Shown here one piece after another: positions 1,114 through 23,082 of a stretch of 64,000 bases of DNA. The notes below the pieces were generated by a model that did no database searches, was not told the DNA's origin, and worked only from the letters and a program-made list of their open reading frames with translations. The position numbers were made by a program, and so were the translations under genes. This DNA is from Escherichia coli (GTDB lineage: Bacteria; Pseudomonadota; Gammaproteobacteria; Enterobacterales; Enterobacteriaceae). The stretch's first letter is position 1; every line of letters begins with the position of its first letter. Location: the NCBI RefSeq assembly GCF_003019035.1, contig NZ_CP027447.1. One strand, given 5' to 3'.

Positions 1114-2346
1114 TCACCGCTCCTCCGCCAGCTCGGCAGCCTGATGCTGGCGCACGCGATTGAGCAATCCCGCCAGGGTGAAAACGACGATAACGCCCGC
1201 TAAAACGGCTAACAGATGAAACGGCAAGCGACCGCCGTTAAACCACAGCCAGCGGCCGATTTCGACTGAGACAGACATCACCATCAGGATCACCATATTT
1301 AGCGATGCGGAGACGGTCCCTTTCGGTAAGTTATTGGAAAACAGCGTAAAGCGGAATAAGGTCGGGAAAATCAAACCAATCCCGAAAGCATACAGACTGG
1401 TGCCCAGCACCGACCACAGCCAGACGTGCGGCGACAGCAGATTGCCGATAATCAACAGCGAGAGGCCGACCAGTTGAAGGGGTACGGCACGCCAGATAAA
1501 CCGCGGTTCGGTCGGATCTTTAACGAAACGCGCCACGATGGCATTCGCAACAATCACCGCGCCGAACACCGGAACCTGTGTCCAGGCGAACTGCGAAGTT
1601 GTTAAGCCGCCTGCATCGATAAGGATCACCGGCGAGACAGCCACCCAGCTCATCATCGGGATATAGCTTAAAGAGATGGTTGCTGCGCCAAAGAGGAACA
1701 GCCGATTGCAAAAGACATTACGAAAATCGCGCAAGACGCTTTTGGCGCTAAACGGAACCGCGCCGCGCTTCACCGTCTCTGGCATCGCCAACAGTAAGCC
1801 AACAAATGAGATAAAACCCATAACCGCAATGATGGCAAAAAGGACTTTCCAGTGCATAAAGTGCATCAGAGCTGCGCCGGAAAGCGGGCCGATAATCGGC
1901 GCAATCAGTACGATGGAGGTGATAATCGCCATCAACTTGATCCCTTTTGTCTGTCCGAACGCCTCCTGCACCGTGACATAACCAACGGTGGCAATAAAAC
2001 AGATACTGGTGCCCTGAATGGCACGCGCGATAAGAAACTGTGTCATAGACGTTGTGAACATTGTCGCGGCGCAGGCAAGGGTAAAAATTAGCGCCCCGGT
2101 AATCAGCACCGGCCTGCGGCCAATTCTGTCGGAAAGTGGCCCCAATAGCCACTGTAACGCCATACCGCCAGCGAGATAGAGACTGACGGCAGCAGGGGCC
2201 AGACTGACATCGGCATTAAAATCACGTACCACATTAATAATCCCTGGCTGGATTAGATCCGTCGACAGGTACGCGGCAAAGTCATACAAAATCAACGCCA
2301 TCGGGAAAAACAGCGTGGCGGCATGGCGGGCAAAAAAACGTGGCAT
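1114..2346 (-). CDS. mdtM: MFS multidrug efflux transporter MdtM
   Basis: 410 aa from ATG at 2346 ([10 protein letters not shown]...) with AAGGAG 8 nt upstream; track ORF starts 9 nt further up at TTG; MFS motifs [13 protein letters not shown]. Confidence 0.9.
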
Positions 2347-2813
2347 AAAAAACAACTCCTTGTCCGGAGAACCCCAATGGGGAAAACGAAATTCAATACC
2401 GTCGGTAATGACGAAAGGCAGGCGAGAAGGACAAATGTACTGAATTTCATGTAATCAACCACACTGCCTGTGAACACACAGACAGAGAAATACCTTCTGA
2501 CTCCAGGTCAGAATGTATAACGATTACAAATAGTCATCAGCACATTACACCTCTTGAATTGATGGATTGCATAGAAAATATACACCTTAAGTGTAATTAA
2601 AATTTGCGGTTAATCAAAAGAGCGCGGTGGAAAGGGGAATATCTGCCGGGTACAGGACATGTAAAAACACGAGCCTGTTTCCGGAAAAATGTATCGTTTG
2701 CAGAGGAACAAAAATAGCCTGGAAAGCACCTCGGGGAACGAGAAATTGCCGGGTGAGAATTGTTTTGTTAGTCGCTACAGTCGGGCCATCTTATCTACAG
2801 GTGACGGATCGCC

Positions 2814-3770
2814 ATGACAAACTTCACGACCAGTACGCCGCATGACGCATTATTTAAATCCTTTCTCACGCACCCTGACACCGCGCGGGATTTTATGGAG
2901 ATCCACTTACCCAAAGATTTACGTGAACTGTGCGATCTCGACAGCTTAAAACTGGAATACGCCAGCTTTGTCGATGAAAAATTGCGGGCGCTACATTCCG
3001 ATATTCTGTGGTCGGTAAAGACCCGCGAAGGAGATGGCTATATTTATGTGGTGATTGAACATCAGAGCCGCGAGGATATCCATATGGCCTTTCGCCTGAT
3101 GCGATATTCCATGGCGGTGATGCAGCGCCATATCGAGCGTGATAAACGCCGGCCGCTACCGCTGGTCATCCCGATGCTGTTTTATCACGGTAGCCGTAGT
3201 CCTTACCCCTGGTCTTTGTGCTGGCTGGATGAATTTGCCGACCCGGCTACCGCACGGAAGCTTTATACCGCAGCGTTCCCGCTGGTGGATGTCACTGTCG
3301 TGCCAGACGACGAGATTGTGCAGCATCGCAGAGTCGCCCTGCTGGAGTTGATCCAAAAGCATATTCGCCAGCGCGATCTAATGGGGCTTATTGATCAACT
3401 GGCAGTATTACTGGTTACAGGGTGCGCTAATGACAGCCAGATAACCGCGCTGTTAAATTACATTTTACTGACTGGCGATGAAGCGCGTTTTAATGAGTTT
3501 ATCAGCGAACTTATCCGTCGAATGCCACAACACAGGGAGCGAATAATGACGATTGCAGAGCGAATTCATAATGATGGATGGCTGTTGGGAAGGGAGAGGG
3601 GGAGGAAAGAAGGGAAAGAAGAAGGGGAAAAGAGCCTCCTCCGATTGTTGTTGCAGAATGGGGCGGATCCTGAATGGATACAACGATATACCGGACTTTC
3701 GGCAGAGCAAATGCAGGCATTAGATCAGCCCTTGCCTGAAAGCAAGCGCGATCCATGGATCGAGTACTAA
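2814..3770 (+). CDS. rpnD: Rpn (YhgA-like, PD-(D/E)XK transposase_31) recombination-promoting nuclease, intact 318 aa
   Basis: ORF track 2814..3770; family hallmarks [23 protein letters not shown] and Lys/Glu/Gly-rich C-terminus; position between mdtM and yjiR matches yjiP/yjiQ locus. Confidence 0.75.
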
Positions 3771-3826: not shown

Positions 3827-4012
3827 ATAACCCATTAAATATATTGAATTTTAAAGATTTTGTAGACCTGGTAAGGTGTTCACATGGCATCCGGCATGAA
3901 CGAAGCGCATTTTGCCTAAGCCATGCTGGAACGTGGAGATGACCCTGCAAAGATAAAACGAGTCACACGCTATTCGTGAGAGGAAATCAGGGGGCTCGCC
4001 ACTATTTCGAAT

Positions 4013-5425
4013 TCATTCCATTGCCCGATACACGGCTTCGCCAATTTGCTTCAGTGCTTCGCGATAGGTTTCGCTGAGCGGCAAAGCGCAGTTGATGCGC
4101 AGACAATTACGGTATTTGCCGGAAGCTGAGAAAATCGAGCCTGCCGCCACCTGGATTTTCATGCGGTATAGCTGCCGCGCAACGCAAACCATATCGACCT
4201 GTTCAGGCAATTCGATCCACAGTAAAAATCCGCCTTTCGGGCGCGTAATACAGATTTCGCAGGGAAAATATTCCCGTATCCAGCAGGTATAAAGCGCCAA
4301 ATTGCGCTGATAGATCTGCCGCATCCGCCGGATATGGCGATGATAGTGACCTTCCAGCACAAACGTTGCCGCCGCCATTTGCGTGGACGGCACATTAAAG
4401 CTGCTGATGGCATATTTCATATGCAGCAGTTTATCGTGATAGCGCCCCGGTGCGACCCAACCCACGCGCAGGCCTGGAGCAATACTTTTACTGAACGAGC
4501 TGCACAACAGCACTCGCCCGTCGATATCCCAGGAATGAATGGTCCGCGGGCGCGGATACTCCGTCGCCAGTTCGCCGTAGACATCATCTTCAAAAATCAC
4601 AATATCATGACGCTGAGCGAGAGAGAGAACGGCCCGTTTGCGCGCGTCCGGCATAATAAATCCCAGCGGATTATTACAGTTTGGCACCAGAATGATGCCT
4701 TTAATCGGCCACTGCTCCAGCGCCAGTTCCAGCGCTTCAACGCTGATGCCTGTTTCTGGATCGGTGGGGATTTCAATCACTTTCACGCCCATGCCGCGCA
4801 GCATCTGCATCGAACCGTAATAACAGGGGGATTCGACCGCGACAATATCGCCCGGTTTACACACTGCCATCAACGCCAGCGACATCGAGTTATGGCAGCC
4901 GCTGGTGATGATGATGTCATCGGCGGTGACCACCGAGCCGCTGTCGAGCATCAGGCGGGCAATCTGCTCGCGCAATACCCGCTGGCCGGCTAACAAGTCA
5001 TAACCGAGAACGGTTTGCAGATTATGCTGCACCACCCGGCTTAGCTCCCGCCACAGCGGTTTCAGGCTGGGCGTTTCGACATCCGGCGTGCTTTTACTTA
5101 ACGGAACAATGGAACTGTCGCTATGCGCCTCCAGCATATCCAGCACCTGATCCCACTGGGTAATTTCCACCGGGCGCTGCACCGGACGCGTCATCGGCGG
5201 TACTGGCGGCTGGGCTTTACGTTGTGCGACAAAATAACCCGAACGCGGCTGCGGAGTGATGAGCTTCATCGTCTCCAGCGTCTGGTACGCCTGCTGCACG
5301 GTGCTAATACTGACGCCGTGCTCCTGACTCAAGCTGCGCACCGACGGCAATTTCTCCCCGTGACGATACAGCCCTTGCTCAATCCGCTCTGCAAGCAGAG
5401 TCGCCAGATGTTGATAACGCGTCAT
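4013..5425 (-). CDS. yjiR: MocR-subfamily GntR regulator with aminotransferase-like (PLP) domain
   Basis: 470 aa; N-terminal HTH (LPSVRSLSQEHGVSISTVQQAY) plus large C-terminal fold-type I aminotransferase-like domain. Confidence 0.85.
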   Translation of the reverse strand: MTRYQHLATLLAERIEQGLYRHGEKLPSVRSLSQEHGVSISTVQQAYQTLETMKLITPQPRSGYFVAQRKAQPPVPPMTRPVQRPVEITQWDQVLDMLEAHSDSSIVPLSKSTPDVETPSLKPLWRELSRVVQHNLQTVLGYDLLAGQRVLREQIARLMLDSGSVVTADDIIITSGCHNSMSLALMAVCKPGDIVAVESPCYYGSMQMLRGMGVKVIEIPTDPETGISVEALELALEQWPIKGIILVPNCNNPLGFIMPDARKRAVLSLAQRHDIVIFEDDVYGELATEYPRPRTIHSWDIDGRVLLCSSFSKSIAPGLRVGWVAPGRYHDKLLHMKYAISSFNVPSTQMAAATFVLEGHYHRHIRRMRQIYQRNLALYTCWIREYFPCEICITRPKGGFLLWIELPEQVDMVCVARQLYRMKIQVAAGSIFSASGKYRNCLRINCALPLSETYREALKQIGEAVYRAME

Positions 5426-5601
5426 GCTGTATTCCTTATTTGGACCATACAGAGGGAAAAACCGGTACAGATGAGGCTAAAAAACCGGATGCAGATGCTG
5501 TTTTAACCTGTCTGTATGTTAAATAAAAGTAATGTTTGAATCTGTATTGTGAACTGCCAAAAGGCGGATGATGAAGCCTCTGAAAGATGAGGAGGCAGCA
5601 G

Positions 5602-5766
5602 ATGGAATTTCACGAAAACAAAGCTAAAGCACCGTTTATTGGACTTGTGCAACTCTGGCAGGCAGTGAGGACCTGGTGGCTGAAAAAGCAGACCCGGCGC
5701 GTGTTACAGCAGATGAGTGATGAGCGGTTGAGGGATATTGGGTTACGCAGGGAGGATGTGGAGTGA
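5602..5766 (+). CDS. yjiS: DUF1127 small protein YjiS (54 aa)
   Basis: ATG at 5602 with AGGAGG 6 nt upstream; MEFHENKAKAPFIGLVQLWQAVRTWWLKKQTRRVLQQMSDERLRDIGLRREDVE. Confidence 0.8.
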   Translation: MEFHENKAKAPFIGLVQLWQAVRTWWLKKQTRRVLQQMSDERLRDIGLRREDVE

Positions 5767-5775
5767 TGGGGCAAT

Positions 5776-5800
5776 TTCCCTTCCCGTATGGGGAAGGGGA
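5776..5800. terminator. Hairpin between convergent yjiS and symE (possible bidirectional terminator)
   Basis: cccttccc-gtat-ggggaagggg inverted repeat in the 41-nt gap. Confidence 0.4.
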
Positions 5801-5807
5801 GAGAAAC

Positions 5808-6146
5808 TTAGCGTGGCGTTTTGCTACTAATCACCCCAATAAAATCCTGCACCTGCTTTTGTTTACGCGCCGACAGCTTGCACACCTGGCGCAGCGACAG
5901 CATCAGTTCGCTCTCTTCGGCGGCGGGTGGTTGGGCGGTGAGGACAATACAGCCTTCCATCACTTTGACATCTACCGCCGTGCCGGTGGCAAAACCGGCG
6001 GTTTCCAGCCACTGACCTTTCAGGGTGATGGCGGGAATACGGCTGTAATCCGGGTAGCGACTCGCATAACTCACGGTTAATTGACGGTTATTTGCCGGGG
6101 AGACTTCTGCTTCGAACGGTTGTGCAATAGAATGCGTGTCAGTCAT
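5808..6146 (-). CDS. symE: SymE, SOS-induced type I toxin (AbrB-fold RNA-cleaving protein)
   Basis: 112 aa [48 protein letters not shown]... matches remembered SymE; LexA-like box upstream. Confidence 0.85.
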
Positions 6147-6216
6147 GATTACTATTCCTTAGAAATAGGGATTGTGATTAGCGGTGCGGGTGTGTTGGCG
6201 CACATCCGCACCGCGC
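6138..6216 (+). ncRNA. symR: SymR antisense sRNA (antitoxin of symE), approximate ends
   Basis: By analogy with K-12, where SymR is antisense to the symE start and 5'UTR; candidate -10 TAGAAT at 6128..6133 on + strand and GC hairpin 6181..6214; boundaries not verified. Confidence 0.4.
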
Positions 6217-6223
6217 TAAATAC

Positions 6224-6239
6224 CTGGATATATCATCAG
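6224..6239. promoter_or_regulatory. LexA (SOS) box upstream of symE
   Basis: CTGGATATATCATCAG fits CTGT-N8-ACAG with AT-rich centre, about 80 nt upstream of the symE start codon. Confidence 0.5.
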
Positions 6240-6328
6240 TAAATATGGGGAAAGTCCAGCTAAAAATAGAAAATAATAAAAGCGTTACTGGAAAGATCTG
6301 GAAGAGAAATTAACGTTAATTCAGAATG

Positions 6329-6354
6329 GCCGGATAACAAAGTGTATCCGGCCT
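6329..6354. terminator. Hairpin immediately downstream of hsdR stop
   Basis: ggccggata-caaagtg-tatccggcc inverted repeat 7 nt beyond the hsdR stop codon. Confidence 0.35.
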
Positions 6355-6360
6355 TCATAA

Positions 6361-9300
6361 TTAGTTTAAAACACTCATATGATGTTCTTTAAAATTCTCT
6401 GCCTGTGCCAGCACTCCCATATAAACATCATCATTCGCTACTGGCGGGAACTTATGCTTGTGTAGAAGAAGAATAAGTTCAACTTTTAGTTTCGCTTTAA
6501 TATCATCGCGCTTACTCCAGTCAGGATATTTCGATGTGTTGTCAACCACGCTTTTCATCTCTTTTGCCAGTGACAGCATTTTTTCATCGTCATAGGTGAA
6601 CTGATATTTATCGCGCATATGAGCAAGAATGTCGAAAAACGCTTTTTCTTCAATATCAATACCTAAATCGGCCCATGTGCCCATTTCGGTTTTAATATCA
6701 TAGATAATATCGGTCATTTCCTGACTGAATGTATCGAATTCTTCACCGTTGAGTACATCATCTTCTCGCCGCTCATTATAACGATCTATAATCGCCTGGA
6801 AGCGGCGGGTGAAGTTAATCCCTTGCAACTGGTTCACTTTCTTGAAGTCGCTGATCGCTTTTTCCAGTAATTTTTGTAATAACTGGATCTTTGTTGCCGG
6901 AAGTTTGATCTTGTTAATTCGCGCCAGATAATCTTCGTCAAAAATATCGATGGATTCCGCTTTTTTATCGCCAAGAAAATAAATTTCTTCTACGCCATCA
7001 GCTTTTAGCGCTTCTGCAATCATTTCACGAACGCGTGCATTCATCTGGGTGACATCCGGTGCGTCACCTTTCGTCAGTTTGAAAACAATTGAACGAACAG
7101 CAAGATAATAGTGAATATGATCACGTTCTGTCTGTGATAGTGCTTCACTGCCGCAGCAGACGTCGTAGGCGGCTTTCATGCGTTTAACCAGTCCCATAAA
7201 ACGACGTTCAACTTTCTGGGTACGCAGAACAAATTCCGCCGCGCGGTTGAGGCAGGATAATTGCGCTTGTGGCTCACCACTAAAATAATCCCGACTGTCA
7301 AATTCGTAAAAGACTTGCCCCAACAAATCGAGATGGTTTTTAACTTCTATTACCGATTGCTGAATATCTTCAAAGTTGGTGGCATCAATGCGGGAATACA
7401 TTGCCAGTGCCTGGTTCATCTGACTTTTAATGCCGATGTAGTCCACCACTAACCCTTTACTTTTGCCTTCCAGTTTACGGTTAACGCGAGAAATGGTCTG
7501 GATAAGATTATGTTTTTGTAAGGGTTTATCAATATAGATGGTATCCAGTTCCGGGACGTCGAAACCAGTCAGCCACATATCAACAACAATGGCAATTTTG
7601 AAATTCGATTTAGCGTTTTTGAACTGCTTATCCAGCTCTTTACGATATTCTTTTGTGCCCAGTAAATCATAAAGCGCCTCGTCGTCATCTTTACCGCGCG
7701 TCATGACCATCTTCACCATTTCTGAAGGCGGTAACTCTTTCTGCTCCTGTTCCGTCAGGACGACGCCATCGGGGGCTTGCTTCACTTCAAACCAGGTAGG
7801 GCGAATAGCTTTAAGCTGGCGGTAGAAATCCCAGGCAATTTCACGGCTGGCACAAACAAACATGGCTTTGCCTTTTACGGTGGAACCTTCGGCTACGCGT
7901 TTTTCATAATGTTTAGCAAAATCTTCCGCGAGGGCTTTTAACCGATCTTCATCACCCAGTACCGCATTCATGGTTGCGGTGGCTTTTTTGCTTTCGTCGA
8001 TTTGCCACTCATTGGTGCCTGCGTTTGCGCACTCTTCGTAATACTTTTCGACTTCTTCCAGTTTGCTGGAGTCCAGGATCACTTTAGCCGCACGGCCTTC
8101 GTACACGATGCGTACAGTGATTTCATCCTGAACGGATTCGGTCATGGTGTAACTGTCGATCACCTCACCGAAGACATCGAGCGTCGCGTCAATCGGTGTG
8201 CCGGTAAAGCCAACATAGGTGGCGTTTGGCAGTGAATCGTGCAGGTATTTCGCAAAGCCATAAGTTTTGCGCACTTTTCCGCTTTCTTTATCGACGATGA
8301 CTTTCTGGTCGAGGTTAACCTGGCTGCGATGTGCTTCGTCTGAGATGCAAATGATATTGCTGCGTTCAGAAAGGAGTTCGGTGTCTTCGGTGAATTTATG
8401 GATCGTTGTCAGGAATACACCGCCACTATTGCGTCCCGCCAGTTGATTACGCAAATCTTCACGGCTGATAACAGGAACGATGGTGTCGTCGCCAATGTAA
8501 TTTTTGGCGTTGCACATTTGCGCAGAAAGCTGATCGTCCAGATCGGTGCGGTCGGTGATCAAAACAATGGTCGGGCTGGCAAACTCCACGCTCTTCATCA
8601 AAAGACGCGTTAAAAATTGCATGGTGTAACTTTTGCCACAGCCCGTTGCGCCAAAGTAGGTGCCGCCTTTACCGTTACCGAAAGGTTTACGCGCTTGCTT
8701 GATGCTGTAATAGAGTTTGCGGGCGGCATAGTACTGCGGATATCGGCAGCAAATTTTTACTTCGTGCTTAGCTTTATCCGGGAAGCAGATAAAGTTTTTA
8801 ATCACATCCAGCAGACGTACCGGATGAAACAGCCCCTGAATCATTGAGTGCAATGACGGAATTCCGTCCTGTTCACGGTTTTCATTACCGGTGACTTTGC
8901 GCCATGAGTAAAAATATTCATAGGGCGCAAACAGGTTGCCCATCCGGTTATTAACGCCATCGCTAATAATGCAGAGCGCGTTGTAGATAAACAGTTGCGG
9001 AATATCCCGGCGGTAGCGTTTACAGAGCTGCTTCCAGGCATCACCTATACTGGCTTCCTGCTCGCGCACCGCGCTTTTAAATTCAAAGACGACCAATGGC
9101 AGACCATTGATATAGAGAATGCCGTCAGGAATACGAGTCTGATTATCTTTGCCGGAGATTTTAAGCTGGTTAACAATCTTAATCCGGTTAAGCGGCGGAT
9201 TAATATAGGAGGGCGGGAGTTCTGCCGCCTGTTGCAACGGGACATCTTCGGCGTCAAATATCTGGCGCAGTGCGGCAGGTAGATGCCGGGTGTCGAGCAA

Positions 9301-9624
9301 TTCAATATAGAGATCTTTTTGTTGCCGATCGTCGCGTTTGAACAGAAAACCATTTGCCAGCCAGCGACAAAATGTTTTGTTGCTTTCATAAAGATCGGAG
9401 GCCGGAAGCGTGGTGAACTGTTTGATCAGTCGCTGAATCTCTTCTTCAGTAATGCCATCAGGCTGGTAGCGTGCCGCTAAATAATGACGGAGATCGTCTT
9501 CGATAATGACCTGATCGAGACTTGAACGAGGGACATTATCGCCGATCAGGTGTTGATATCCCTGATCCTGTAATAGTTCAATGATCGCTTGTTCTAATTT
9601 TGCTTCACTGAAAGAGAGACTCAT
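6361..9624 (-). CDS. hsdR: Type I restriction enzyme R subunit (HsdR; SF2 helicase/translocase plus nuclease)
   Basis: 1087 aa from ATG at 9624 (track starts at TTG 9636); helicase motifs YFGATGCGKS (Walker A), ICISDEAHRSQ (DEAH), VGFTGTPI. Confidence 0.9.
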   Translation of the reverse strand: MSLSFSEAKLEQAIIELLQDQGYQHLIGDNVPRSSLDQVIIEDDLRHYLAARYQPDGITEEEIQRLIKQFTTLPASDLYESNKTFCRWLANGFLFKRDDRQQKDLYIELLDTRHLPAALRQIFDAEDVPLQQAAELPPSYINPPLNRIKIVNQLKISGKDNQTRIPDGILYINGLPLVVFEFKSAVREQEASIGDAWKQLCKRYRRDIPQLFIYNALCIISDGVNNRMGNLFAPYEYFYSWRKVTGNENREQDGIPSLHSMIQGLFHPVRLLDVIKNFICFPDKAKHEVKICCRYPQYYAARKLYYSIKQARKPFGNGKGGTYFGATGCGKSYTMQFLTRLLMKSVEFASPTIVLITDRTDLDDQLSAQMCNAKNYIGDDTIVPVISREDLRNQLAGRNSGGVFLTTIHKFTEDTELLSERSNIICISDEAHRSQVNLDQKVIVDKESGKVRKTYGFAKYLHDSLPNATYVGFTGTPIDATLDVFGEVIDSYTMTESVQDEITVRIVYEGRAAKVILDSSKLEEVEKYYEECANAGTNEWQIDESKKATATMNAVLGDEDRLKALAEDFAKHYEKRVAEGSTVKGKAMFVCASREIAWDFYRQLKAIRPTWFEVKQAPDGVVLTEQEQKELPPSEMVKMVMTRGKDDDEALYDLLGTKEYRKELDKQFKNAKSNFKIAIVVDMWLTGFDVPELDTIYIDKPLQKHNLIQTISRVNRKLEGKSKGLVVDYIGIKSQMNQALAMYSRIDATNFEDIQQSVIEVKNHLDLLGQVFYEFDSRDYFSGEPQAQLSCLNRAAEFVLRTQKVERRFMGLVKRMKAAYDVCCGSEALSQTERDHIHYYLAVRSIVFKLTKGDAPDVTQMNARVREMIAEALKADGVEEIYFLGDKKAESIDIFDEDYLARINKIKLPATKIQLLQKLLEKAISDFKKVNQLQGINFTRRFQAIIDRYNERREDDVLNGEEFDTFSQEMTDIIYDIKTEMGTWADLGIDIEEKAFFDILAHMRDKYQFTYDDEKMLSLAKEMKSVVDNTSKYPDWSKRDDIKAKLKVELILLLHKHKFPPVANDDVYMGVLAQAENFKEHHMSVLN

Positions 9625-9690
9625 ATCGCGCTCCAACCCTGGCTAATTTCTGGTAAGCATTCCCGTATCAGTAGAAAACCTTACCAGAAA

Positions 9691-9710
9691 GCCCCTGATT
9701 TTACAGGGGC
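9691..9710 (-). terminator. Hairpin between hsdS stop and hsdR start
   Basis: gcccctg-atttta-caggggc inverted repeat; on the coding (minus) strand followed by tttctggtaagg; implies a separate hsdR promoter. Confidence 0.4.
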
Positions 9711-9718
9711 AAAATGCG

Positions 9719-11113
9719 TTATGCAGTTTCTGTATCGGTGTTGAGATCCGGAAGATCTTCCCGGGATAGCTCACCGGAGATGAGTTTCGGGAGCAGGGTG
9801 TCGCGGAGGTTGCTCAGGACTATTTGATTATTATTATGTGACTTGTCAATCCAAGGCATAACGATATTATAAAAAGTATTAATTATTTCAACATCTGGCA
9901 TAACTACATGTTCAGCCTCAAGAAAATATTTTGTCTGGAAGTTAGCGATTCCTGTACTTTGGTTTTGGTATTCCCACATTTTTCCATCGTTATATATTTT
10001 ATTGAGGTGTAAACTAATTATTAGCCCTATCTCTATAGATAACGGCTCAAACTTGCGACAAAAACTAGCAGGTTCAATAATACCCCCTAATCGACTTATA
10101 ATCTGTTCAGTCATGAAAATTGAACGGCCAGTTGACTGCGTTGGACTTCCTCCTGAAACTTCTATTATAATATCACCATTATTAATTTTTCTTTTTTCGA
10201 GTTTTTTGGGTTCTACCCATCTACATGGGGCAGAACTCATTTTCCCTGAAATTAACTCCGGGATATCAGTACCGCGCACTATCACTGCTTGAATTGTATG
10301 CTTTTCATCTCTGGAATCACTCCCCCAGTCACCACCAATTGTATTTTTTAGTAAACTATTAACATTTGAAAACTTCCAACCTTTAGGAATTAAACCTAAC
10401 TCCGTTTCTTCAAATTCACTTGGGAAAAGCGAGCGGATTTCCGCCGGAAGCGGTTTAAAATCTGTACTATTACGTACTTTTTGACGCAACTCGGCACGAG
10501 ATTGCAGAGCCTCCGGGATTGGATTTCCTGCATCCAGAGCGTTATCAACCACCGGATCAAAATCCACAAACCAGGATTTGAACAGGGTTTGGGACATTTG
10601 TTCTAATGACTTATTTATTACTTCATTGGATTTTAGCTTACTAAATATAAGAGTGTTTGTTTTTGCGATATGTTGGCAATATTTATCTGGTGCAAGATTA
10701 AATTCATAATCTAATATGGCTGTTTTATCACCCCTTGGCATTTTGGTGCCTTTGGATGTTAAAACAGTATGTTCGATGAATTTTTGATCCATTAATACTG
10801 ATAGAATATAATTAGAATTAATATTTTTTTTAGGACGGAATACAATTACATCGTTAGAACAGCCACCAGTTCGATCTGCAAGCCATAGTTTTTTAAAATA
10901 TGTTCTGATATTCGAGAATAAAATATCTCCAGAATGAAATTTTGTTATTTTCCCTGTGCTAGGTTTACTATTTGCTATTGATATACCTCCAAAATTGGTA
11001 AGCATATTTTCAGTTGATATGTAATCGCAAAGACTAATTTGCGATACATCAACTTTAGTAGTGATGATATCTACAACTTCTTTAAGTTTTATTTTCTCCC
11101 ACTTACTCCCCAT
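9719..11113 (-). CDS. hsdS: Type I R-M specificity subunit (HsdS), two target-recognition domains
   Basis: 464 aa from ATG at 11113 (MGSKWEKIKLKEVVDII...), overlapping the hsdM stop by 11 nt; TRD-like motif GDILFSNIRTYFKK; strongly AT-rich DNA by eye. Confidence 0.85.
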   Translation of the reverse strand: MGSKWEKIKLKEVVDIITTKVDVSQISLCDYISTENMLTNFGGISIANSKPSTGKITKFHSGDILFSNIRTYFKKLWLADRTGGCSNDVIVFRPKKNINSNYILSVLMDQKFIEHTVLTSKGTKMPRGDKTAILDYEFNLAPDKYCQHIAKTNTLIFSKLKSNEVINKSLEQMSQTLFKSWFVDFDPVVDNALDAGNPIPEALQSRAELRQKVRNSTDFKPLPAEIRSLFPSEFEETELGLIPKGWKFSNVNSLLKNTIGGDWGSDSRDEKHTIQAVIVRGTDIPELISGKMSSAPCRWVEPKKLEKRKINNGDIIIEVSGGSPTQSTGRSIFMTEQIISRLGGIIEPASFCRKFEPLSIEIGLIISLHLNKIYNDGKMWEYQNQSTGIANFQTKYFLEAEHVVMPDVEIINTFYNIVMPWIDKSHNNNQIVLSNLRDTLLPKLISGELSREDLPDLNTDTETA

Positions 11114-12722
11114 AACCCAGCACCTCCAGATTCTGGCGAATCGCACGATCCAGTTCTTCCGCCTGCTTCATCTGCTCAAACAACGTCTTCGACAATTCGC
11201 GCATTTTCGTCTCAAATGCCACGCCGTCCTCTTCCTGCTCGGCTGCACCTACATAGCGGCCCGGTGTCAGAACGTAGTCGTTATCTTTAATGTCTTGCAG
11301 GGTCGCAACTTTGCAGAAGCCAGCCTGGTCTTCATATTTTTCCAGCTTGCTGTCACCACGCGCAATCCGTGCAGCCAGTTCTTCCGGCGTACTGCGCCAG
11401 GCATGGTAGGTATCGGCGATGGTGGCAATATCTTCCGTTGTTAACTCTTTAGTTGTGCGGCTAATCATGGTGCCGAGGTTACGCGCATCAATAAACAGCG
11501 TCTCGCCCTGACGATCACGATAACCTTTGGCCGGATCGGCAGCCTTCGATTTGGTCATAAACCATAAACACACCGGGATCTGCGTGGTGTAAAACAACTG
11601 ACCTGGCAGAGCGATCATGCAGTCAATCAGATCATTTTCGATCATCTGTGCACGGATCTCGCCTTCACCGCTGGTGTTAGAACTCATCGAACCGTTTGCC
11701 AGCACAAAACCTGCTGTGCCGTTAGCCGACAGCTTGGAGAGCATATGCAAAATCCAGCCGTAGTTGGCGTTACCGGTTGGCGGCATACGATACCCAGCAA
11801 AACGTGGGTCTTTGGTTAATTCGGCTTCATTACGCCAGTCTTTCAGGTTGAACGGCGGGTTCGCCAGAATGTAGTCGGCTTTCAGGTCCGGGTGCTGGTC
11901 GCTAAAGAAAGTGTTTGCCGGTCGTTCGCCGAGGTTAGCTGAAAGACCGCGAATGGCGAGGTTCATTTTTGCCAGTTTATACGTCGTGGCAGTCAGTTCC
12001 TGACCATACAGCGCGATATCACGGCTTTTACCCTGATGGCTCTCGACAAACTTCACCGACTGCACGAACATCCCCGCCGAACCGCAGCACGGGTCATAAA
12101 TTTTGCCCTGAAAGGGTTCGAGCATTTCAGTTAACAGCGTAACCACACATTTAGGCGTGTAGAACTCACCACCGCCTTTGCCTTCAGTTGCGGCAAACTT
12201 ACCGAGGAAGTATTCGTAAACGCGTCCGACCAGGTCTTCTTTCGATAACGTTTCAACGTCAGTTTCGTGTGCCAGCGTTTCGATGTTGTCGATGGTATCA
12301 ATCAGTGACGCCAGTTTTTTGGTTTCCAGATTCTGACGGCTGAAGTAGTTGTCTGGCAGCGCGCCTTTCAGGGTTGGGTTACGTTTCTCAATGGTCGAGA
12401 GGGCGGTGTCAATACGAACCGCAATATCGTCCTGTTTGGCATTTTGTTTGATAAACGACCAGCGCGCCTCTTCCGGCAGGTAGAAAATGTTGTCCTGCTG
12501 GTAGAACACTTCCATCTCAAGGAAGTCAGCTTGCCCATCGGCAATCATTTTTTTGCGGCGTGCTTCAAACTTATCGCTGATGAATTTCAGGAACACGAGG
12601 CTCAACACCACGTGCTTGTATTCGGAGGACTCAACGCTACCGCGAAGCTGGTTTGCTGTATCCCATAATGTTTCTTCAAAGCCTTTCTTTGCTTTGGCTT
12701 TTTTAGTTGGTGCTTTGGCCAT
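11103..12722 (-). CDS. hsdM: Type I R-M N6-adenine DNA methyltransferase subunit (HsdM)
   Basis: 539 aa; SAM-binding IYDPCCGSAGMF and catalytic NPPF (ILANPPFNLKDW). Confidence 0.9.
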   Translation of the reverse strand: MAKAPTKKAKAKKGFEETLWDTANQLRGSVESSEYKHVVLSLVFLKFISDKFEARRKKMIADGQADFLEMEVFYQQDNIFYLPEEARWSFIKQNAKQDDIAVRIDTALSTIEKRNPTLKGALPDNYFSRQNLETKKLASLIDTIDNIETLAHETDVETLSKEDLVGRVYEYFLGKFAATEGKGGGEFYTPKCVVTLLTEMLEPFQGKIYDPCCGSAGMFVQSVKFVESHQGKSRDIALYGQELTATTYKLAKMNLAIRGLSANLGERPANTFFSDQHPDLKADYILANPPFNLKDWRNEAELTKDPRFAGYRMPPTGNANYGWILHMLSKLSANGTAGFVLANGSMSSNTSGEGEIRAQMIENDLIDCMIALPGQLFYTTQIPVCLWFMTKSKAADPAKGYRDRQGETLFIDARNLGTMISRTTKELTTEDIATIADTYHAWRSTPEELAARIARGDSKLEKYEDQAGFCKVATLQDIKDNDYVLTPGRYVGAAEQEEDGVAFETKMRELSKTLFEQMKQAEELDRAIRQNLEVLGYGE

Positions 12723-12785
12723 GATGAACTCTGTTCAGATAAATTGGGTCGCTATTGTAATGGTAGAGACGGCAGATTTCGCCCT

Positions 12786-13952
12786 TTAATCCATCTCCAG
12801 CTCATCAAACAACTGCAAATCTACATCCAGCAATTCCACTGCATTGCTGCGGCGAATGCCGACGTTATTTTCGATTAACAGTTCCAGTAAGCGATCGCCG
12901 TCGATAAGCGTAATGGGCGCGGCCCCCGGAAAGAGCGCCGCTTCTGCACATTTCGCTGCAAATTTCCCGGTGGTGATGAGCGTACCGCGAATGGCCTTGT
13001 GGTAAGGCAACGCTCCGCGCAACTGGTCGATATACGGTCGAGTGATGGTGTTCTGCATTCTTTTGACCTGCACCACTTCGGTAATAGTGGTGATGCCGAC
13101 CTGCACCTGACCAATCACGTCCACACCTTTATCGCCTGAGGCTTTGGTCACTTCGACCTGCTCGTAGCCCATTGCTTCCAGTAATTGACCGACCAGTTGT
13201 TCAAATTTGTACGGGTTCATCGTGCTGATTTGTTCGCGCAGCAGCTCTTTTTGCTGTTCGTTATAGCGTTTTACCGCTTCCAACAGCTCTTTACGCGGAT
13301 CGCTTTTTCGTGCAGGCAACGCTTTTCCAAGCCAGGCGCGCCCGGTATCGGTGATGCGATAGCTCATGCCTTCACGGTTAACCATGTCACGGTCGATAAG
13401 GTTATAGAGACGGGAGTAGAGCGTGCTTTTCACTGAACTTGCTGACGCGAATTTCGAATGCTGATGCAAAAAGGCCTGCCATTCCGGCAATAAATCGGCG
13501 CGGCGCGACATTTCCCGGCCAGCCAGCAGCTCAAGCAGTTGCAGAATGCCTTCCTGGTCGTCCAGTGAACGCAGCGTTTTTTCGTCATCTTGCAGGAATT
13601 TTTGCCCGCGCGAGGTGGGCTGCCAGGTATCGTCTGGCGTGCTTTCCATCAGCTCAAACTGGGGATAGTTGAGGAATAAGTAGCAGCCGTAGCTGTGGCG
13701 CGGGTTCAATATGTGATTATCGGTATCCCAAATACGACGGGCGATGTCGGCATCTTCACCCGTTAAGCGTTCGCTGATCCACAGGTCAGGTTCCGACCAG
13801 TCAACGGGTTTTTGCGGCGTTCCGGTTTGCTCGTGAATGGCAGTAATCATATTGCGCACCGCTTTCAGGGAATAGCCTGAGACGGCTTTCATCATAGCCT
13901 TAACTTGCGCATAGGTAGGAAAAAGCGGGGTAATGACTTTGTAGTTTTTCAC
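12786..13952 (-). CDS. Mrr-family (Type IV, modification-dependent) restriction endonuclease-like protein with extended N-terminal region
   Basis: 388 aa, GTG start at 13952 with AAGGGA SD; C-terminal region (GDKGVDVIG...VVQVKRMQNTITRPYIDQL...LITTGKF) resembles the K-12 Mrr catalytic domain as I recall it; N-terminal 250 aa not recognisably Mrr-like. Confidence 0.7.
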   Translation of the reverse strand: MKNYKVITPLFPTYAQVKAMMKAVSGYSLKAVRNMITAIHEQTGTPQKPVDWSEPDLWISERLTGEDADIARRIWDTDNHILNPRHSYGCYLFLNYPQFELMESTPDDTWQPTSRGQKFLQDDEKTLRSLDDQEGILQLLELLAGREMSRRADLLPEWQAFLHQHSKFASASSVKSTLYSRLYNLIDRDMVNREGMSYRITDTGRAWLGKALPARKSDPRKELLEAVKRYNEQQKELLREQISTMNPYKFEQLVGQLLEAMGYEQVEVTKASGDKGVDVIGQVQVGITTITEVVQVKRMQNTITRPYIDQLRGALPYHKAIRGTLITTGKFAAKCAEAALFPGAAPITLIDGDRLLELLIENNVGIRRSNAVELLDVDLQLFDELEMD

Positions 13953-14148
13953 GGTAATCCCTTAACGACAGCGAGGTGTTTAGTGTGCCATGTCAGGCGA
14001 GAAATTCTATTGGATGAATCAAGTCCAACTCACACATTGTCAATTTCATGGTTGATTATTCGAAACGTGATGCTATTTCCAACATCAACGCTATAATTGC
14101 AGAATAATTGTACATACATTTTTGTATATACAATTAGGGATGGCAACT

Positions 14149-14268
14149 ATGCCAATGGAGTTTGAATGGGATGCAAATAAGGCCAAAGGTAATCGGGTGA
14201 AACATGGCATCCGCTTTGAAGATGCGGTGTTAGTGTTTGATGATCCACAACGAACGGAATCGCTATGA
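14149..14268 (+). pseudogene. brnT: brnT (DUF497 toxin) remnant with internal deletion
   Basis: MPMEFEWDANKAKGNRVKHGIRFEDAVLVFDDP matches the BrnT N-terminus, stops after 39 codons; a BrnT-like C-terminus (NERNRYEHG-stop, ending 14278) is in the +1 frame. Confidence 0.55.
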
Positions 14269-14567
14269 GCATGGTTAAACATAAACGAGGGACCTCCTCT
14301 ACACTCGATGTGCAGCATGAGGCCGAACTGAAGGCGCTGGCGAATAAATCCGACGAAGATATTGATTACAGTGATATCCCACCTTCCAGCGATGAGCAAT
14401 GGTCTAACGCAGAACGCGGTAAGTTTTATCGGCCATTGAAAACTCAGGCCTCGGTGCGTATTGATTCTGATGTGATGGAATGGTTGAAGCGACCAGGTAA
14501 AGGCTATCAAACTCGCCTGAACGCAATTTTACGTGAAGCGATGCTGCGCGATCAGAACAAAAAATAA
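14265..14567 (+). CDS. brnA: BrnA-like antitoxin (ribbon-helix-helix / DUF4415 family)
   Basis: 100 aa; C-terminal ...VRIDSDVMEWLKRPGKGYQTRLNAILREAM matches BrnA signature; start overlaps the brnT remnant in typical TA fashion (alternative ATG at 14271). Confidence 0.6.
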   Translation: MSMVKHKRGTSSTLDVQHEAELKALANKSDEDIDYSDIPPSSDEQWSNAERGKFYRPLKTQASVRIDSDVMEWLKRPGKGYQTRLNAILREAMLRDQNKK

Positions 14568-14600
14568 TTCAGGCCGCCACATGGCGGCCATCATCCAAAA

Positions 14601-15557
14601 TTACTTCCTCAACCCCGCAAACGCCGCCCGAATCTCATCCTCCGGCAGCTGAATCCCGATAAACACCATCGTGCTATGCGGTTTTTCATCGCCCCATGGC
14701 CTGTCCCAGTCGGCGCTGTAGAGGCGCTGGACACCCTGGAACAGCAGGCGATTAGGTTCGCCGTCAATCCATAGCATCCCTTTGTAACGCAGTAGTTTAT
14801 CCGCCGACTCCAGCAGCAGGTTTTCCATCACGCGGGAAACTTCGCTGATATCTACCGGGTAATCCAGTTCCACCACAATCGACGAAATATCGTTTTGTTT
14901 GTCCGCGATAAAGTGGAAACGCGGTTTGGTGCTGACGACGTTCTCTTCCAGCATAAAACCGTTGGTGTTGAACAGCAGGCCCAGGTCGATGTCGCCGTGG
15001 GTGACGGTGTAGATCGGTGCACGGGCGTTGATGCGCGCCAGGCGTTCACGCAGTTTTTCTGCTTCGCCTGCGACGTCGGTTTTAGTCAGCAGAATACGGT
15101 CGGCGTAGCCAACCTGTGACTGGGCGATGGTGAACTGGTTCATCTGCTCATCGGCATGTACCGCATCCACCAGCGCAATCACGCCGTCCAGCAGGTAACG
15201 CTGGCATAAAATCTCATGGGAGAAAAAGGTCTGAATAATCGGGCCGGGATCGGCCATGCCGGTGCATTCAATCACCAGACGGTCGAACTGAATATTGCCC
15301 TTGTCGAGATTATCCAGCAGGTCGAGTAGGGCGTCTTCCAGCTCGTTGGAGCGCGAACAGCAGATGCAGCCGTTGGTCAGCGTTTTGATCTGCGTGACGC
15401 GATCGCCAATCAGTTGATCATCAACGGAGACTTCGCCGAATTCGTTTTCAATCACGGCAATCTTGTAGCCGTGTTGTTCGTTAAGAATATGGCGCAGCAG
15501 GGTGGTTTTGCCGGCGCCTAAAAAACCGGTGAGTAGGGTAACTGCAATCGGGTTCAT
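14601..15557 (-). CDS. yjiA: CobW/P47K-family GTPase (zinc-binding) YjiA
   Basis: 318 aa from ATG at 15557 (MNPIAVTLLTGFLGAGKTTLL; P-loop); track ORF extends upstream. Confidence 0.9.
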   Translation of the reverse strand: MNPIAVTLLTGFLGAGKTTLLRHILNEQHGYKIAVIENEFGEVSVDDQLIGDRVTQIKTLTNGCICCSRSNELEDALLDLLDNLDKGNIQFDRLVIECTGMADPGPIIQTFFSHEILCQRYLLDGVIALVDAVHADEQMNQFTIAQSQVGYADRILLTKTDVAGEAEKLRERLARINARAPIYTVTHGDIDLGLLFNTNGFMLEENVVSTKPRFHFIADKQNDISSIVVELDYPVDISEVSRVMENLLLESADKLLRYKGMLWIDGEPNRLLFQGVQRLYSADWDRPWGDEKPHSTMVFIGIQLPEDEIRAAFAGLRK

Positions 15558-17971: not shown

Positions 17972-18203
17972 AGTAAAACCTGGCATGTATTGATTAATAG
18001 TTGGCCGAAGCCGTTCTAGGTTTGCGTTGCGTTTGAGGAGGTAAATTGACCGCTATCCTGCAGTGATGTTGCCAGAGTTACGCGCGCGTAAAGTAAGGTA
18101 AATAACTGAGTGGTTATTTTAGGGATGTAAGCGGTCAGGAATGGCGGTGAGCGGTTGGGCAAGAATTATTCGTCGGGTGGATATGTGATTGAGATCACAA
18201 TAA

Positions 18204-18238
18204 AAATGCCCCTTCGATAATTAACCGAAGGGGCGTTC
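18204..18238 (-). terminator. Rho-independent terminator after the DSD1-like gene
   Basis: gccccttcg-ataattaac-cgaaggggc hairpin followed by T-run on the minus strand, directly 3' of the stop at 18239. Confidence 0.5.
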
Positions 18239-19459
18239 TTAGAAGAGAGTGTCTAATTCTGCCAGTACGTTGTAGTCGTCATCAGTCAATAACAACGTTT
18301 TCCATTTGTCGAAGGTCAGGCACGGATGCGATGTGCCAAACACCAGAATATCCCCCACTTGCACGTCGCTATTAGCTGACAGTTGCAACATGCAGTGCTG
18401 ATCCATAATACCTGTACTGCGAATCGCCTGTGGATCAAATGCCAGTGATTTGCCGTTGCGGTAGTGGGCGACTGGTTGCGGCAGTCCGGCGTCGAAGGCG
18501 CAATCACGCTTACCAAAATTTACCACCGCACGATCAGCTTCCGGCACCGATTGCACCATGGCGACCAGTTCCAGCGCAGATGTGAGATCGCCTGCCAGAT
18601 CGCAGGCCACAGGATCACGGGCAAGCAACTGTTGTTGTGCCGCGTCGTAGATCCCGGTGTCGTGAGTGATGTAGCAGCCAGGGCGAATAACAATGCGGCA
18701 GTTATCAGGCTTTTCTGCCGCCAGCCAGATATTGCACACCACGTCATACCAGACCGTGCCTGCTCCGGTGAGAATAAACTCGCCATCAACCAGACTTGCT
18801 ATATCACAGGCCAGTTGTGCGGCATCCCGCAGCAGAGCTTCTACCTGCGGTTGTGGATCGTCACCGTGTAAAACGCCTTCATATAACTCAAGCCCCCGCA
18901 GGCGTAACCCCGGTAATTGGGCTGCCTGTTTAGCCAGTGTCAGTGCGGCATCCCTTGAGCGGCAACCACAGCGCCCGCCGGGGACACCCAACTCAATCAT
19001 CACGTTCAGTGTCTGTTGCTGACTGGCAAAAAAGGCAGACAAAGCGCGGGCGTTCTCAATGCTGTCGATACAGCAGATAAAATCGACCGTCGGGTAATGT
19101 CGTTGCAACTGGGCAATCAACTGCATATTCGCCTTGCCGACCAGCTGGTTAACCATCAGCACTCGCTGAATACCGCTCGCCATTGCCGCACCAGCCTGCC
19201 ATGCGCTACCGACACCTATTGCCCAGGCACCAGCCGCCTGCTGCGCCTGAAAAATCCACGGCGTCATGGTGGTTTTACCGTGCGGTGCCAGTGAAACGCC
19301 GCGCGCGTCAGCGTAGCGTTGCATCCACGTAATGTTGTTCTCCAGGGCCTGCTTTTTAATGATCGCGGCAGGTAAACAGACATCTTCGGCAAGGAGATTT
19401 GCGGGCATTTGCATCAGGGCAGATTTATGGGGAACCAGAGGTTCTGAGTGGTATTTCAT
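18239..19459 (-). CDS. PLP-dependent alanine-racemase-fold enzyme, DSD1 family (D-serine/D-threonine dehydratase or aldolase-like)
   Basis: 406 aa; N-terminal TIM-barrel with PLP-lysine context LAPHGKTT; ATG at 19459. Confidence 0.7.
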   Translation of the reverse strand: MKYHSEPLVPHKSALMQMPANLLAEDVCLPAAIIKKQALENNITWMQRYADARGVSLAPHGKTTMTPWIFQAQQAAGAWAIGVGSAWQAGAAMASGIQRVLMVNQLVGKANMQLIAQLQRHYPTVDFICCIDSIENARALSAFFASQQQTLNVMIELGVPGGRCGCRSRDAALTLAKQAAQLPGLRLRGLELYEGVLHGDDPQPQVEALLRDAAQLACDIASLVDGEFILTGAGTVWYDVVCNIWLAAEKPDNCRIVIRPGCYITHDTGIYDAAQQQLLARDPVACDLAGDLTSALELVAMVQSVPEADRAVVNFGKRDCAFDAGLPQPVAHYRNGKSLAFDPQAIRSTGIMDQHCMLQLSANSDVQVGDILVFGTSHPCLTFDKWKTLLLTDDDYNVLAELDTLF

Positions 19460-19659
19460 AACATTTACCTTTTAAGTTTTTCACCGTATCGGATGTGAGT
19501 ATCATTTGTAACTAAATGAAATATAAATATTTAGTTTATTTATCTTATTATTTATGAATAAAAGTATCATAAAATCATCTGGGTTTTGCGTAGTTTTCCA
19601 CTGTTTTTCGTCCTTGTAAATGGTTAACTTGTCACCATTGCAGAAATGGAGTGACGAAC

Positions 19660-21102: not shown

Positions 21103-21111
21103 GGAGTGAAT

Positions 21112-23073: not shown

Positions 23074-23082
23074 CCGACAATG

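Follow-up and report, generated by a model that had tools for sequence, protein, structure and literature searches.

A probable alternative haplotype of the Escherichia coli immigration control region, with a Type I restriction system most likely of family ID and an Mrr-type nuclease

The immigration control region (ICR) of Escherichia coli is defined by variable defence genes between the anchors yjiN...yjiS and yjiA (PMC12707154, PMC3874165). In the window analysed here, a stretch of 64,000 nucleotides from an E. coli genome, the initial annotation took positions 5602–14600 to be rearranged relative to K-12. The K-12 gene order that it gave was borne out at the MG1655 locus, which reads yjiS-yjiT-yjiV-mcrCB-symE-hsdSMR-mrr-yjiA. 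The order in the window is yjiS / symE+symR / hsdR-hsdS-hsdM / Mrr-type nuclease / brnT remnant-brnA / yjiA (Table 1), with yjiT-yjiV-mcrCB missing from 5602–14600, as had been claimed for mcrBC. It was also correctly seen that yjiS is directly followed by a convergent symE after a 41-nt gap, and that the symE promoter adjoins the 3′ end of hsdR, the hsdR stop lying 214 nt from the symE start. The flanking genes, mdtM-rpn-yjiR-yjiS at the left and yjiA-yjiX-btsT at the right, identify the locus as the ICR, or defence hotspot 36, and outside the variable block the region is collinear with K-12.

Table 1. Features of the variable block and its anchors (window coordinates)
Feature	Position	Strand	Evidence
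yjiS (DUF1127, 54 aa), left conserved anchor	5602–5766	+	ORF; annotation in SCU-301 and K-12
57 nt specific to the empty-left-slot haplotype	5772–5828		no K-12 match; four-haplotype alignment
symE (112 aa)	5808–6146	-	NCBIfam NF010128, 218 bits (cut-off 132)
Conserved symE/symR block, common to all haplotypes, separating left and right variable slots	5829–6277		blastn against K-12, 94.2%; four-haplotype alignment
symR, antisense RNA overlapping the symE start	6141–6217	+	Rfam RF01809, 93.1 bits (gathering score 61), full length 1–77
LexA-box-like CTGG-N9-CAG (CTG-N10-CAG) in the symE promoter	6224–6239		read from sequence
Right-slot cassette, 8.3 kb, without DNA similarity to K-12	6278–14600		blastn
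hsdR (1087 aa), Type I restriction subunit	6361–9624	-	TIGR00348, 465 bits; PADLOC REase_I, 1719 bits, full length
Putative terminator-like hairpin in the 94-nt hsdS-hsdR gap	9691–9710	-	consensus scan
hsdS (464 aa), specificity subunit	9719–11113	-	PADLOC Specificity_I, 451 bits
hsdM (539 aa), methyltransferase subunit	11103–12722	-	PADLOC MTase_I, 641 bits
388-aa nuclease, tandem winged-helix N-terminal domains and Mrr_cat (PADLOC PDC-S02)	12786–13952	-	PDC-S02, 687 bits, full length
brnT remnant (39 codons)	14149–14268	+	alignment against intact brnT of WW2 and Ecol_743
brnA antitoxin (100 aa), intact	14265–14567	+	annotation; named BrnA antitoxin family
GC-rich hairpin between convergent brnA and yjiA	14572–14589		kept in all brnA-yjiA haplotypes aligned
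yjiA (GTPase), right conserved anchor	14601–15557	-	annotation; blastn against K-12

Alignment to MG1655 by blastn placed the limits of K-12 similarity at 5771/5772, 5828/5829, 6277/6278 and 14600/14601. The matches near the locus cover 3852–5771 (yjiR-yjiS, 96.4%), the symE/symR block, and 14601 onward (yjiA and beyond, 98.1%); 5772–5828 and 6278–14600 gave no MG1655 match. Homology ends 5 nt past the yjiS stop and resumes exactly at the yjiA stop codon, while the second break falls inside the last 7 codons of symE and the third just upstream of the symE promoter, conservation around symE/symR stopping near 6270–6278 in a four-haplotype alignment. Besides the last 7 symE codons, by which the SymE C-terminus reads SSKTPR against AGKQKVA, the 57-nt segment contains a hairpin (TTCCCTTCCCcgtatGGGGAAGGGGA) that separates yjiS from the convergent symE. 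The 46 nt directly following yjiS are common to E. coli C122, and blastn-short found no K-12 trace above chance in the yjiS-symE spacer. Identity to K-12 drops modestly near the breakpoints (93.5% in yjiS/symE and 96.6–96.8% in the 3′ half of yjiA, against 98–99% further out), and a strongly raised flank divergence was rejected on this basis.

Each of the three Hsd subunits has its full length, and together they constitute a Type I restriction-modification (R-M) system, made up of the helicase-nuclease HsdR, the N6-adenine methyltransferase HsdM and the specificity subunit HsdS. The TIGR00348 match of HsdR exceeds its cut-off, the match of HsdM to TIGR00497 (173 bits) stays under its cut-off of 243, and the hsdM 3′ end and the hsdS start share 11 nt. 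The genes would be transcribed in the order hsdM-hsdS-hsdR, with the hairpin of Table 1 in the gap before hsdR; promoter and terminator scans gave counts equal to the shuffled expectation, so that individual sites are hints only. From what is known of the family, HsdM2S would methylate a bipartite target that the two recognition domains of HsdS specify, and a complex of HsdM2S with HsdR would cut unmodified incoming DNA.

HsdR is 24.7% identical to its K-12 counterpart (Type IA) and 22% to that of CFT073 (Type IB), the corresponding values for HsdM being 24.5% (EcoKI of K-12) and 27%; the Type IC system EcoR124I gave only 87 bits for HsdR and 136 bits for HsdM. Identities between Type I families lie at ~17–33% (PMC2481252), and HsdR and HsdM stand in this inter-family relation to IA, IB and IC alike. 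Judged by sequence, these hsd genes make up a third Type I family, non-homologous and unrelated to EcoKI, in which the gene order is M-S-R. The initial annotation was right that the locus differs from K-12, but its term ‘rearranged’ does not fit, as the hsd family is non-homologous with a protein identity of 22–27%.

This family is most likely Type ID (StySBLI/EcoR9I/KpnAI), an assignment made by exclusion, from a published survey in which IA, IB and ID are the only Type I families of the ICR, and from the genera represented in protein clusters. Klebsiella, Salmonella, Citrobacter, Enterobacter and other Escherichia species are represented in the HsdR and HsdM clusters at 90% identity, the Klebsiella and Salmonella members having lengths of 1087–1088 aa (HsdR) and 539 aa (HsdM); cluster members from these two genera are only suggestive of Type ID. 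Membership of Type ID is defined by high identity of HsdM and HsdR to the prototypes, and also by complementation of subunits and cross-reacting antibodies among the members. The Type ID target has 6 bp between two methylated adenines (PMC12707154, PMC3874165).

HsdS has a layout of two target recognition domains (TRDs), of which TRD2 (~aa 246–435) is swapped relative to strain EC9, with TRD1 and the conserved regions kept. The allele, and TRD2 especially, is rare, occurring in 1 of the 788 complete genomes that carry the cassette, and its 90% cluster has 11 members; the local GC content of hsdS is 33–41%. In this strain the Type I system is probably active, and its rare specificity allele bears on transformability and on phage or plasmid uptake.

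The Mrr-type gene and hsdM share a strand, the former lying 63 nt upstream. Its product has a PD-(D/Q)xK catalytic domain, Pfam Mrr_cat (PF04471), at residues 243–359 (E=3.8e-29), in which D278, Q295 and K297 are invariant in 34 homologues, and its best family match is PADLOC PDC-S02. No match to Mrr_N was found in the protein, and K-12 Mrr aligned by BLASTP over the C-terminal 173 aa only (31% identity), so that it does not qualify as an orthologue of K-12 Mrr. A single-sequence AlphaFold model (pLDDT 35.8) was discarded and redone with a 34-sequence alignment; in the resulting AF2 model (pLDDT 80.8), the N-terminal 210 aa were modelled as tandem winged helices. Foldseek related the catalytic domain to MspJI/AspBHI and the N-terminal part to the recognition domains of FokI/BpuJI/N.BspD6I. 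From family knowledge, the enzyme would probably cut DNA bearing foreign modifications.

Close homologues of the nuclease span Klebsiella, Salmonella, Citrobacter, Enterobacter and other Escherichia. Six of six distant homologues inspected (51–64% identity), from Kushneria, Thiocystis, Halomonas and three metagenomic/MAG contigs, are each located within a Type I operon of another family or directly adjoin one. This linkage, together with the 63-nt distance from hsdM, is the basis for supposing that PDC-S02-type nucleases are dedicated partners of Type I systems, beyond being neighbouring Type IV enzymes, a supposition that we consider unlikely. By analogy with PrrC/EcoprrI, such a partner would act as a back-up nuclease tied to the Type I complex, or set free by it, upon phage DNA modification or restriction inhibition.

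The initial annotation had placed mrr-like and brnTA genes between hsd and yjiA. Their positions are confirmed, yet the brnTA pair is not intact, as brnT is a deletion pseudogene with a frameshifting internal deletion of 158 bp (junction 14251/14252), leaving 39 codons against 95 in WW2, EC9 and Ecol_743. The gene is likewise annotated as a pseudogene in OkiPb01706 and in SCU-301, a near-identical strain. With brnT deleted, the locus lacks an intact BrnTA type II pair and brnA would be an orphan antitoxin; an identical sequence, named as BrnA antitoxin family, is present on at least 1000 contigs.

The symE block retains all parts of a SymE/SymR type I toxin-antitoxin-like module: the symE ORF, symR over its 5′ end (symE start at 6146), and the LexA-box-like site, which alignment shows to be kept in IA, IB and ID haplotypes. 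SymE is 93% identical to both K-12 and CFT073 SymE. On family knowledge, symE would be SOS-inducible and repressed by the antisense RNA symR; the role given to the LexA box goes back to an account of symE regulation reportedly given by Kawano and colleagues in 2007. In a search of the region with Rfam, symR was the only RNA gene found, two weak archaeal snoRNA matches (E ~0.2) being dismissed.

The frequency of the cassette was assessed in 5,426 complete E. coli genomes, presence being defined as at least 80% coverage of 6278–14600. It occurs in 788 (14.5%), at the same site, and at a single chromosomal site in every genome inspected, which makes it about as common as Type IA (hsdR in 935 genomes) or Type IB (hsdR in 946) and commoner than mcrBC (582, or 11%). 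The direct yjiS-symE junction is present in 919 genomes and the junction of symE with this hsdR end in 924, so that the empty left slot and the cassette are almost completely linked. SCU-301 is 99.8% identical over the cassette, and the other carriers, among the matches listed, ~97–98%. This is about the same as the divergence of the strain from K-12 in the adjacent chromosome, and argues for age and not for a recent sweep. OkiPb01706 is a natural recombinant, in which a GmrSD-type left slot and this right-slot cassette are joined at symE, and WW2 is an internal-deletion derivative.

Taken together, positions 5602–14600 would represent the variable core of the ICR in one of its standing alternative haplotypes, composed of two variable slots parted by the conserved symE/symR block. 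The left slot, from yjiS to symE, is empty here, being filled by yjiT-yjiV-mcrCB in K-12 and by GmrSD in other strains; the right slot, from the symE promoter to yjiA, holds the complete Type I R-M system, the Mrr_cat gene, and the decayed brnTA adjoining yjiA. The polymorphism would be old, inherited and occasionally swapped, the conserved flanks (yjiR/yjiS, symE, yjiA) serving as sites of homologous recombination, and we regard such a haplotype, with no rearrangement or mobile insertion, as very probably the correct explanation. Given the near-complete linkage of the slots, vertical descent of the haplotype as a whole, and its loss in other lineages, may account for most carriers, and slot-by-slot exchange seems rare. 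The earlier proposal of recombinational cassette exchange at a defence hotspot is supported by the breaks at gene ends, the absence of mobile genes, the 788 carriers at the same site, the OkiPb01706 recombinant and published reviews; from these we infer homologous recombination in the flanks as the mechanism.

A recent rearrangement in this strain, by which a K-12-like hsd operon was inverted or reordered and mcrBC deleted, would account for the same gene names at the same site and for symE adjoining hsdR instead of hsdS. It is refuted by the alignments, given that 6278–14600 has neither DNA similarity to K-12 nor proteins closer than 22–27%, and the same arrangement is found in 788 complete genomes that have mutually diverged by ~2–3%, which leaves it hardly any probability. 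Still smaller, to the point of being negligible, is the chance of an assembly chimera or a misjoin across a repeat: 12 kb are collinear with SCU-301 at 99.1%, and with hundreds of independently closed genomes, which refutes it.

A rival with more in its favour is delivery of the cassette by the Rpn nuclease encoded nearby, or by a mobile element such as an integrative island, a transposon, a plasmid or a phage. An intact gene for an Rpn-family recombination-promoting nuclease lies 1.8 kb to the left (2814–3770) and matches a PHROG ‘transposase’ family with 304 bits; IS1 or IS621 is present at the ICR in SCU-301 and Ecol_743; the hsdS and hsdR 3′ regions are AT-rich; and the same proteins occur in several genera. 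Against this, K-12, CFT073 and E. coli C likewise carry rpn, so that it does not track this haplotype, and the breakpoints lie at conserved gene ends common to all haplotypes. In agreement with the initial annotation, no integrase or transposase was found among the ORFs of 5602–14600 or at its edges, and the block does not qualify as an integrative element or transposon. The search for flanking direct or inverted repeats gave only short matches such as chance would produce, and none of these brackets the cassette; terminal repeats are absent. Only one plasmid record, itself of 834 kb and probably chromosomal, contains at least 80% of the cassette. Genuine plasmids do not carry the cassette, and a plasmid origin was rejected; three other records (655 kb twice, 22 kb) hold the brnTA segment only, and one plasmid carries hsdM at 79% identity. 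Mobile delivery is, on balance, improbable, although RecA-independent events are possible, given rpn and the IS1/IS621 copies in some strains.

The difference from K-12 is real but ordinary, the haplotype being old and common and not newly acquired by this strain. That restriction genes vary in cassette fashion between yjiS and yjiA has been described since the 1990s–2000s, and the variation was surveyed in 2025. Loenen et al. (2014) described Type I systems on alternative DNA segments lying between these genes, and cited Sibley & Raleigh (2004) for their cassette-like variation (PMC3874165). The EcoSal Plus 2025 review lists Types IA, IB and ID in the ICR, each with its own Type IV enzyme, as well as brnAT, symE-symR and rpn (PMC12707154). 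The locus therefore carries little weight as a discovery and is chiefly of use for annotation. With mcrBC in so small a share of genomes, K-12 is not the reference state here, and symE/symR appears as a fixed divider between two independently variable slots, rare as their separate exchange looks.

Compared with the K-12 ICR, the site, the anchors (yjiR/yjiS, symE/symR, yjiA) and the combination of a Type I system with a Type IV nuclease and symE are the same, whereas here the left slot is empty, the hsd order is M-S-R instead of R-M-S, Type I identity is that between families, and brnA with its brnT remnant is present. The Mrr-type gene, on the hsd strand, has only the catalytic domain in common with K-12 Mrr. 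The CFT073 ICR (Type IB, EcoAI family) likewise places symE immediately after the hsd operon, and a gene for an accessory nuclease between hsd and yjiA, but differs in its 810-aa HsdR, in GmrSD fragments in the left slot, in a DUF262 protein in place of Mrr_cat, and in lacking brnTA, yjiR and yjiS. The ‘empty’ ICR of E. coli C122 has the same yjiS-proximal hairpin sequence; all that is left there is an hsdR fragment next to a DUF262 gene, as at the CFT073 Type IB locus, and symE has been lost. EcoprrI resembles the window in an extra nuclease gene tightly linked to hsd, the Type I-associated accessory nuclease PrrC (PMC3874165), with the difference that PrrC is an anticodon RNase latent in a Type IC complex, whereas the candidate partner here is a PD-(D/E)xK DNA nuclease with winged helices. 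The enterobacterial Type ID loci (StySBLI, EcoR9I, KpnAI) are reported as one of three mutually allelic Type I families at the ICR. The system described here shares their location, is neither IA, IB nor IC, has near-identical HsdR and HsdM counterparts in Klebsiella and Salmonella, and reaches in E. coli a frequency close to the 12% given for Type ID among 8,424 enterobacterial ICRs (EcoSal Plus 2025, PMC12707154); its rare HsdS allele is a point of difference.

The initial annotation had described a rearranged immigration control region (ICR), the variable defence-gene site between yjiS and yjiA, lacking mcrBC, with symE abutting hsdR and additional genes beside yjiA. The gene content and order over 5602–14600 were confirmed with a single correction, concerning brnT, as was the convergent yjiS/symE gap of exactly 41 nt, and the K-12 gene order given for comparison matches the MG1655 annotation. 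The first 20 kb of the window (1–20 kb) corresponds to the 98-min region of the E. coli chromosome.

Gene content around the ICR of the window
Feature	Position	Strand	Details
mdtM	1114-2355	-	
Rpn-family gene	2814-3770	+	intact, 318 aa; PHROG 'transposase' family, 304 bits
yjiR	4013-5425	-	
yjiS	5602-5766	+	
symE	5808-6146	-	
symR	6141-6217		Rfam, 93 bits (gathering score 61)
hsdR	6361-9624	-	1087 aa
hsdS	9719-11113	-	464 aa
hsdM	11103-12722	-	539 aa
Mrr_cat protein	12786-13952	-	388 aa
brnT remnant	14149-14268	+	
brnA	14265-14567	+	
yjiA	14601-15557	-	followed by yjiX and btsT

Alignment to MG1655, proposed in the initial annotation for placing the breakpoints, was performed with blastn, and yielded only three aligned segments near the locus. 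The first, 3852–5771 (yjiR–yjiS; 96.4% identity), ends 5 nt past the yjiS stop codon; the second, 5829–6277 (94.2%), covers symE and symR together with the symE promoter, which includes a LexA-like box; and the third restarts exactly at the yjiA stop codon, from 14601 onward (98.1%). Between them, 5772–5828 and 6278–14600 showed no resemblance to MG1655 by blastn. The 7.6-kb yjiT-yjiV-mcrCB segment of K-12 corresponds to 57 nt in the window, consisting of a hairpin and a different set of last seven symE codons, and the 7.9-kb hsdSMR-mrr segment is replaced by an unrelated 8.3 kb, here termed the cassette. Identity to K-12 dips modestly beside the breakpoints, to 93.5% at yjiS/symE and 96.6–96.8% in the 3'-terminal half of yjiA, from 98–99% at greater distance.

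A four-way alignment of the window, K-12 (Type IA), CFT073 (Type IB) and OkiPb01706 revealed a single conserved symE/symR block with haplotype-specific sequence to either side, so the ICR comprises two variable slots divided by symE. The last symE codons (5808–5828) track the state of the left slot, reading SSKTPR when yjiS is directly adjacent and AGKQKVA when mcrBC or GmrSD intervenes, which places a cassette boundary inside the symE reading frame. As OkiPb01706 combines GmrSD fragments on the left with the window's cassette on the right, the slots are able to reassort at symE.

By sequence, the hsd system belongs to a Type I family distinct from that of EcoKI, and is no reshuffled version of the latter. 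Identity to the K-12 proteins is 24.7% for HsdR and 24.5% for HsdM, and to those of CFT073 22% and 27%, values of a size reported between families (PMC2481252); the Type IC enzyme EcoR124I gave weak matches to the two subunits (87 and 136 bits, respectively). Gene order also differs, being hsdM-hsdS-hsdR in the window and hsdR-hsdM-hsdS in K-12; the hsdS start overlaps the hsdM stop by 11 nt, and a 94-nt gap containing a hairpin separates hsdS from hsdR. A 2025 survey of 8,424 enterobacterial ICRs found only Types IA, IB and ID, the last at 12% (PMC12707154), and the 90%-identity clusters of HsdR and HsdM include Klebsiella, Salmonella, Citrobacter and Enterobacter proteins. Together with the inter-family identities, this makes Type ID (StySBLI/EcoR9I/KpnAI) most likely, an assignment made by exclusion and context rather than by comparison with a prototype sequence.

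The HsdS 90% cluster has 11 members, those of HsdR and HsdM thousands. Relative to EC9, the window HsdS retains both conserved regions and an identical TRD1, with a replaced TRD2 unlike that of most carriers, which is variation of the classic modular kind. The whole allele is rare, being shared only with the near-identical strain SCU-301 among the 788 complete genomes carrying the cassette.

The 388-aa protein contains Pfam Mrr_cat (E=3.8e-29), had no Pfam match to Mrr_N, and shares with K-12 Mrr only the catalytic domain (31% identity over 173 aa). PADLOC candidate PDC-S02 matches it over its full length (687 bits). An AlphaFold model built from 34 homologues (pLDDT 80.8; >85 for residues 10–210) predicts an N-terminal part resembling the winged-helix recognition domains of FokI, BpuJI and N.BspD6I, and a C-terminal domain resembling the catalytic domains of MspJI and AspBHI (Foldseek); D278, Q295 and K297 are invariant among homologues. 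All six distant homologues examined (51–64% identical; from Kushneria, Thiocystis, Halomonas and three metagenomic or MAG contigs; L012, L014, L016–L019) are encoded within or immediately next to Type I operons of other families; in four of these, HsdR bears the EcoEI_R_C domain, which Type IB enzymes can also possess. Further embedded genes encode TIR_2 in Kushneria, AbiEii and DUF6088 in L018, and PemK in L017. This conserved linkage is a side observation outside the original claim.

The annotated brnTA pair beside yjiA stands only in part: brnA is intact and in place, but brnT carries a 158-bp frameshifting internal deletion (junction 14251/14252) leaving 39 codons, by comparison with the intact 95-codon gene of WW2, EC9 and Ecol_743. 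SCU-301 has the identical deletion, and the OkiPb01706 annotation also gives brnT as a pseudogene truncated at the C-terminus; in the window and in some other carriers, brnA is thus left as an orphan antitoxin.

Counting single-location matches that cover ≥80% of the query, the cassette occurs in 788 of 5,426 complete E. coli genomes (14.5%), compared with 935 (17.2%) for K-12-type (IA) hsdR, 946 (17.4%) for CFT073-type (IB) hsdR and 582 (10.7%) for K-12 mcrBC. The direct yjiS-symE junction is present in 919 (16.9%), and symE joined to the window-type hsdR 3' end in 924 (17.0%); these near-equal counts indicate that the slots seldom reassort and that, as a rule, the haplotype moves as a unit. 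Their excess over full cassettes is due, at least in part, to decay products such as WW2, which has an hsdR'-'hsdM deletion. The brnT-brnA segment alone was matched in ~1,400 further genomes, and in the one inspected, Ecol_743, adjoins yjiA. Cassette identity is 99.8% in SCU-301 and ~97–98% in other carriers among the matches listed, similar to that between the window and K-12 over the adjacent 40 kb (96.6–97.5%), so the haplotype is old rather than a recent arrival.

Elsewhere, between btsT and tsr, the window carries 5.9 kb (18155–24067) that K-12 lacks, having 136 bp at this position; the matching SCU-301 genes are annotated as an amino acid deaminase, N-acyl-D-amino-acid deacylase, RidA, sodium:solute symporter and MurR/RpiR regulator, and the segment resembles a small islet for D-amino-acid catabolism. 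Two further, minor differences in length relative to K-12 occur at alignment-block breaks near yjjV/yjjW and nadR/ettA (46766–46879 and 60853–61055). SCU-301 carries an IS621, absent from the window, between the Rpn-family gene and yjiR; rpnD, the K-12 counterpart of the former, is a pseudogene.

The evidence supports the proposal of recombinational cassette exchange at a defence hotspot, a phenomenon already known. Neither transposase nor integrase was found within the block or, as initially noted, at its edges, and the suggested search of the flanks revealed no terminal repeats. Only one plasmid record, of 834 kb, carries the cassette, and this is probably chromosomal DNA. These absences, the OkiPb01706 combination and the identity dips fit a mechanism in which alternative cassettes would persist vertically and be swapped by homologous exchange. 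Loenen et al. (PMC3874165) report alternative segments of DNA bearing Type I systems in the yjiS–yjiA interval. The Rpn nuclease gene, which is conserved and lies 1.8 kb leftward, could conceivably have a role in the exchange.

The locus is a common, already published alternative ICR haplotype: according to the EcoSal Plus 2025 review cited above (PMC12707154), Types IA, IB and ID each come with their own Type IV enzyme, together with brnAT, symE-symR and rpn. In the classical 'empty' strain E. coli C122, the hairpin following yjiS is the same as in the window (L010, the C122 locus, 6126–6735), and beyond it lie part of an hsdR and a DUF262 gene, as found beside the Type IB hsdR of CFT073; the empty site thus seems to derive from a Type IB haplotype by a deletion that also removed symE.
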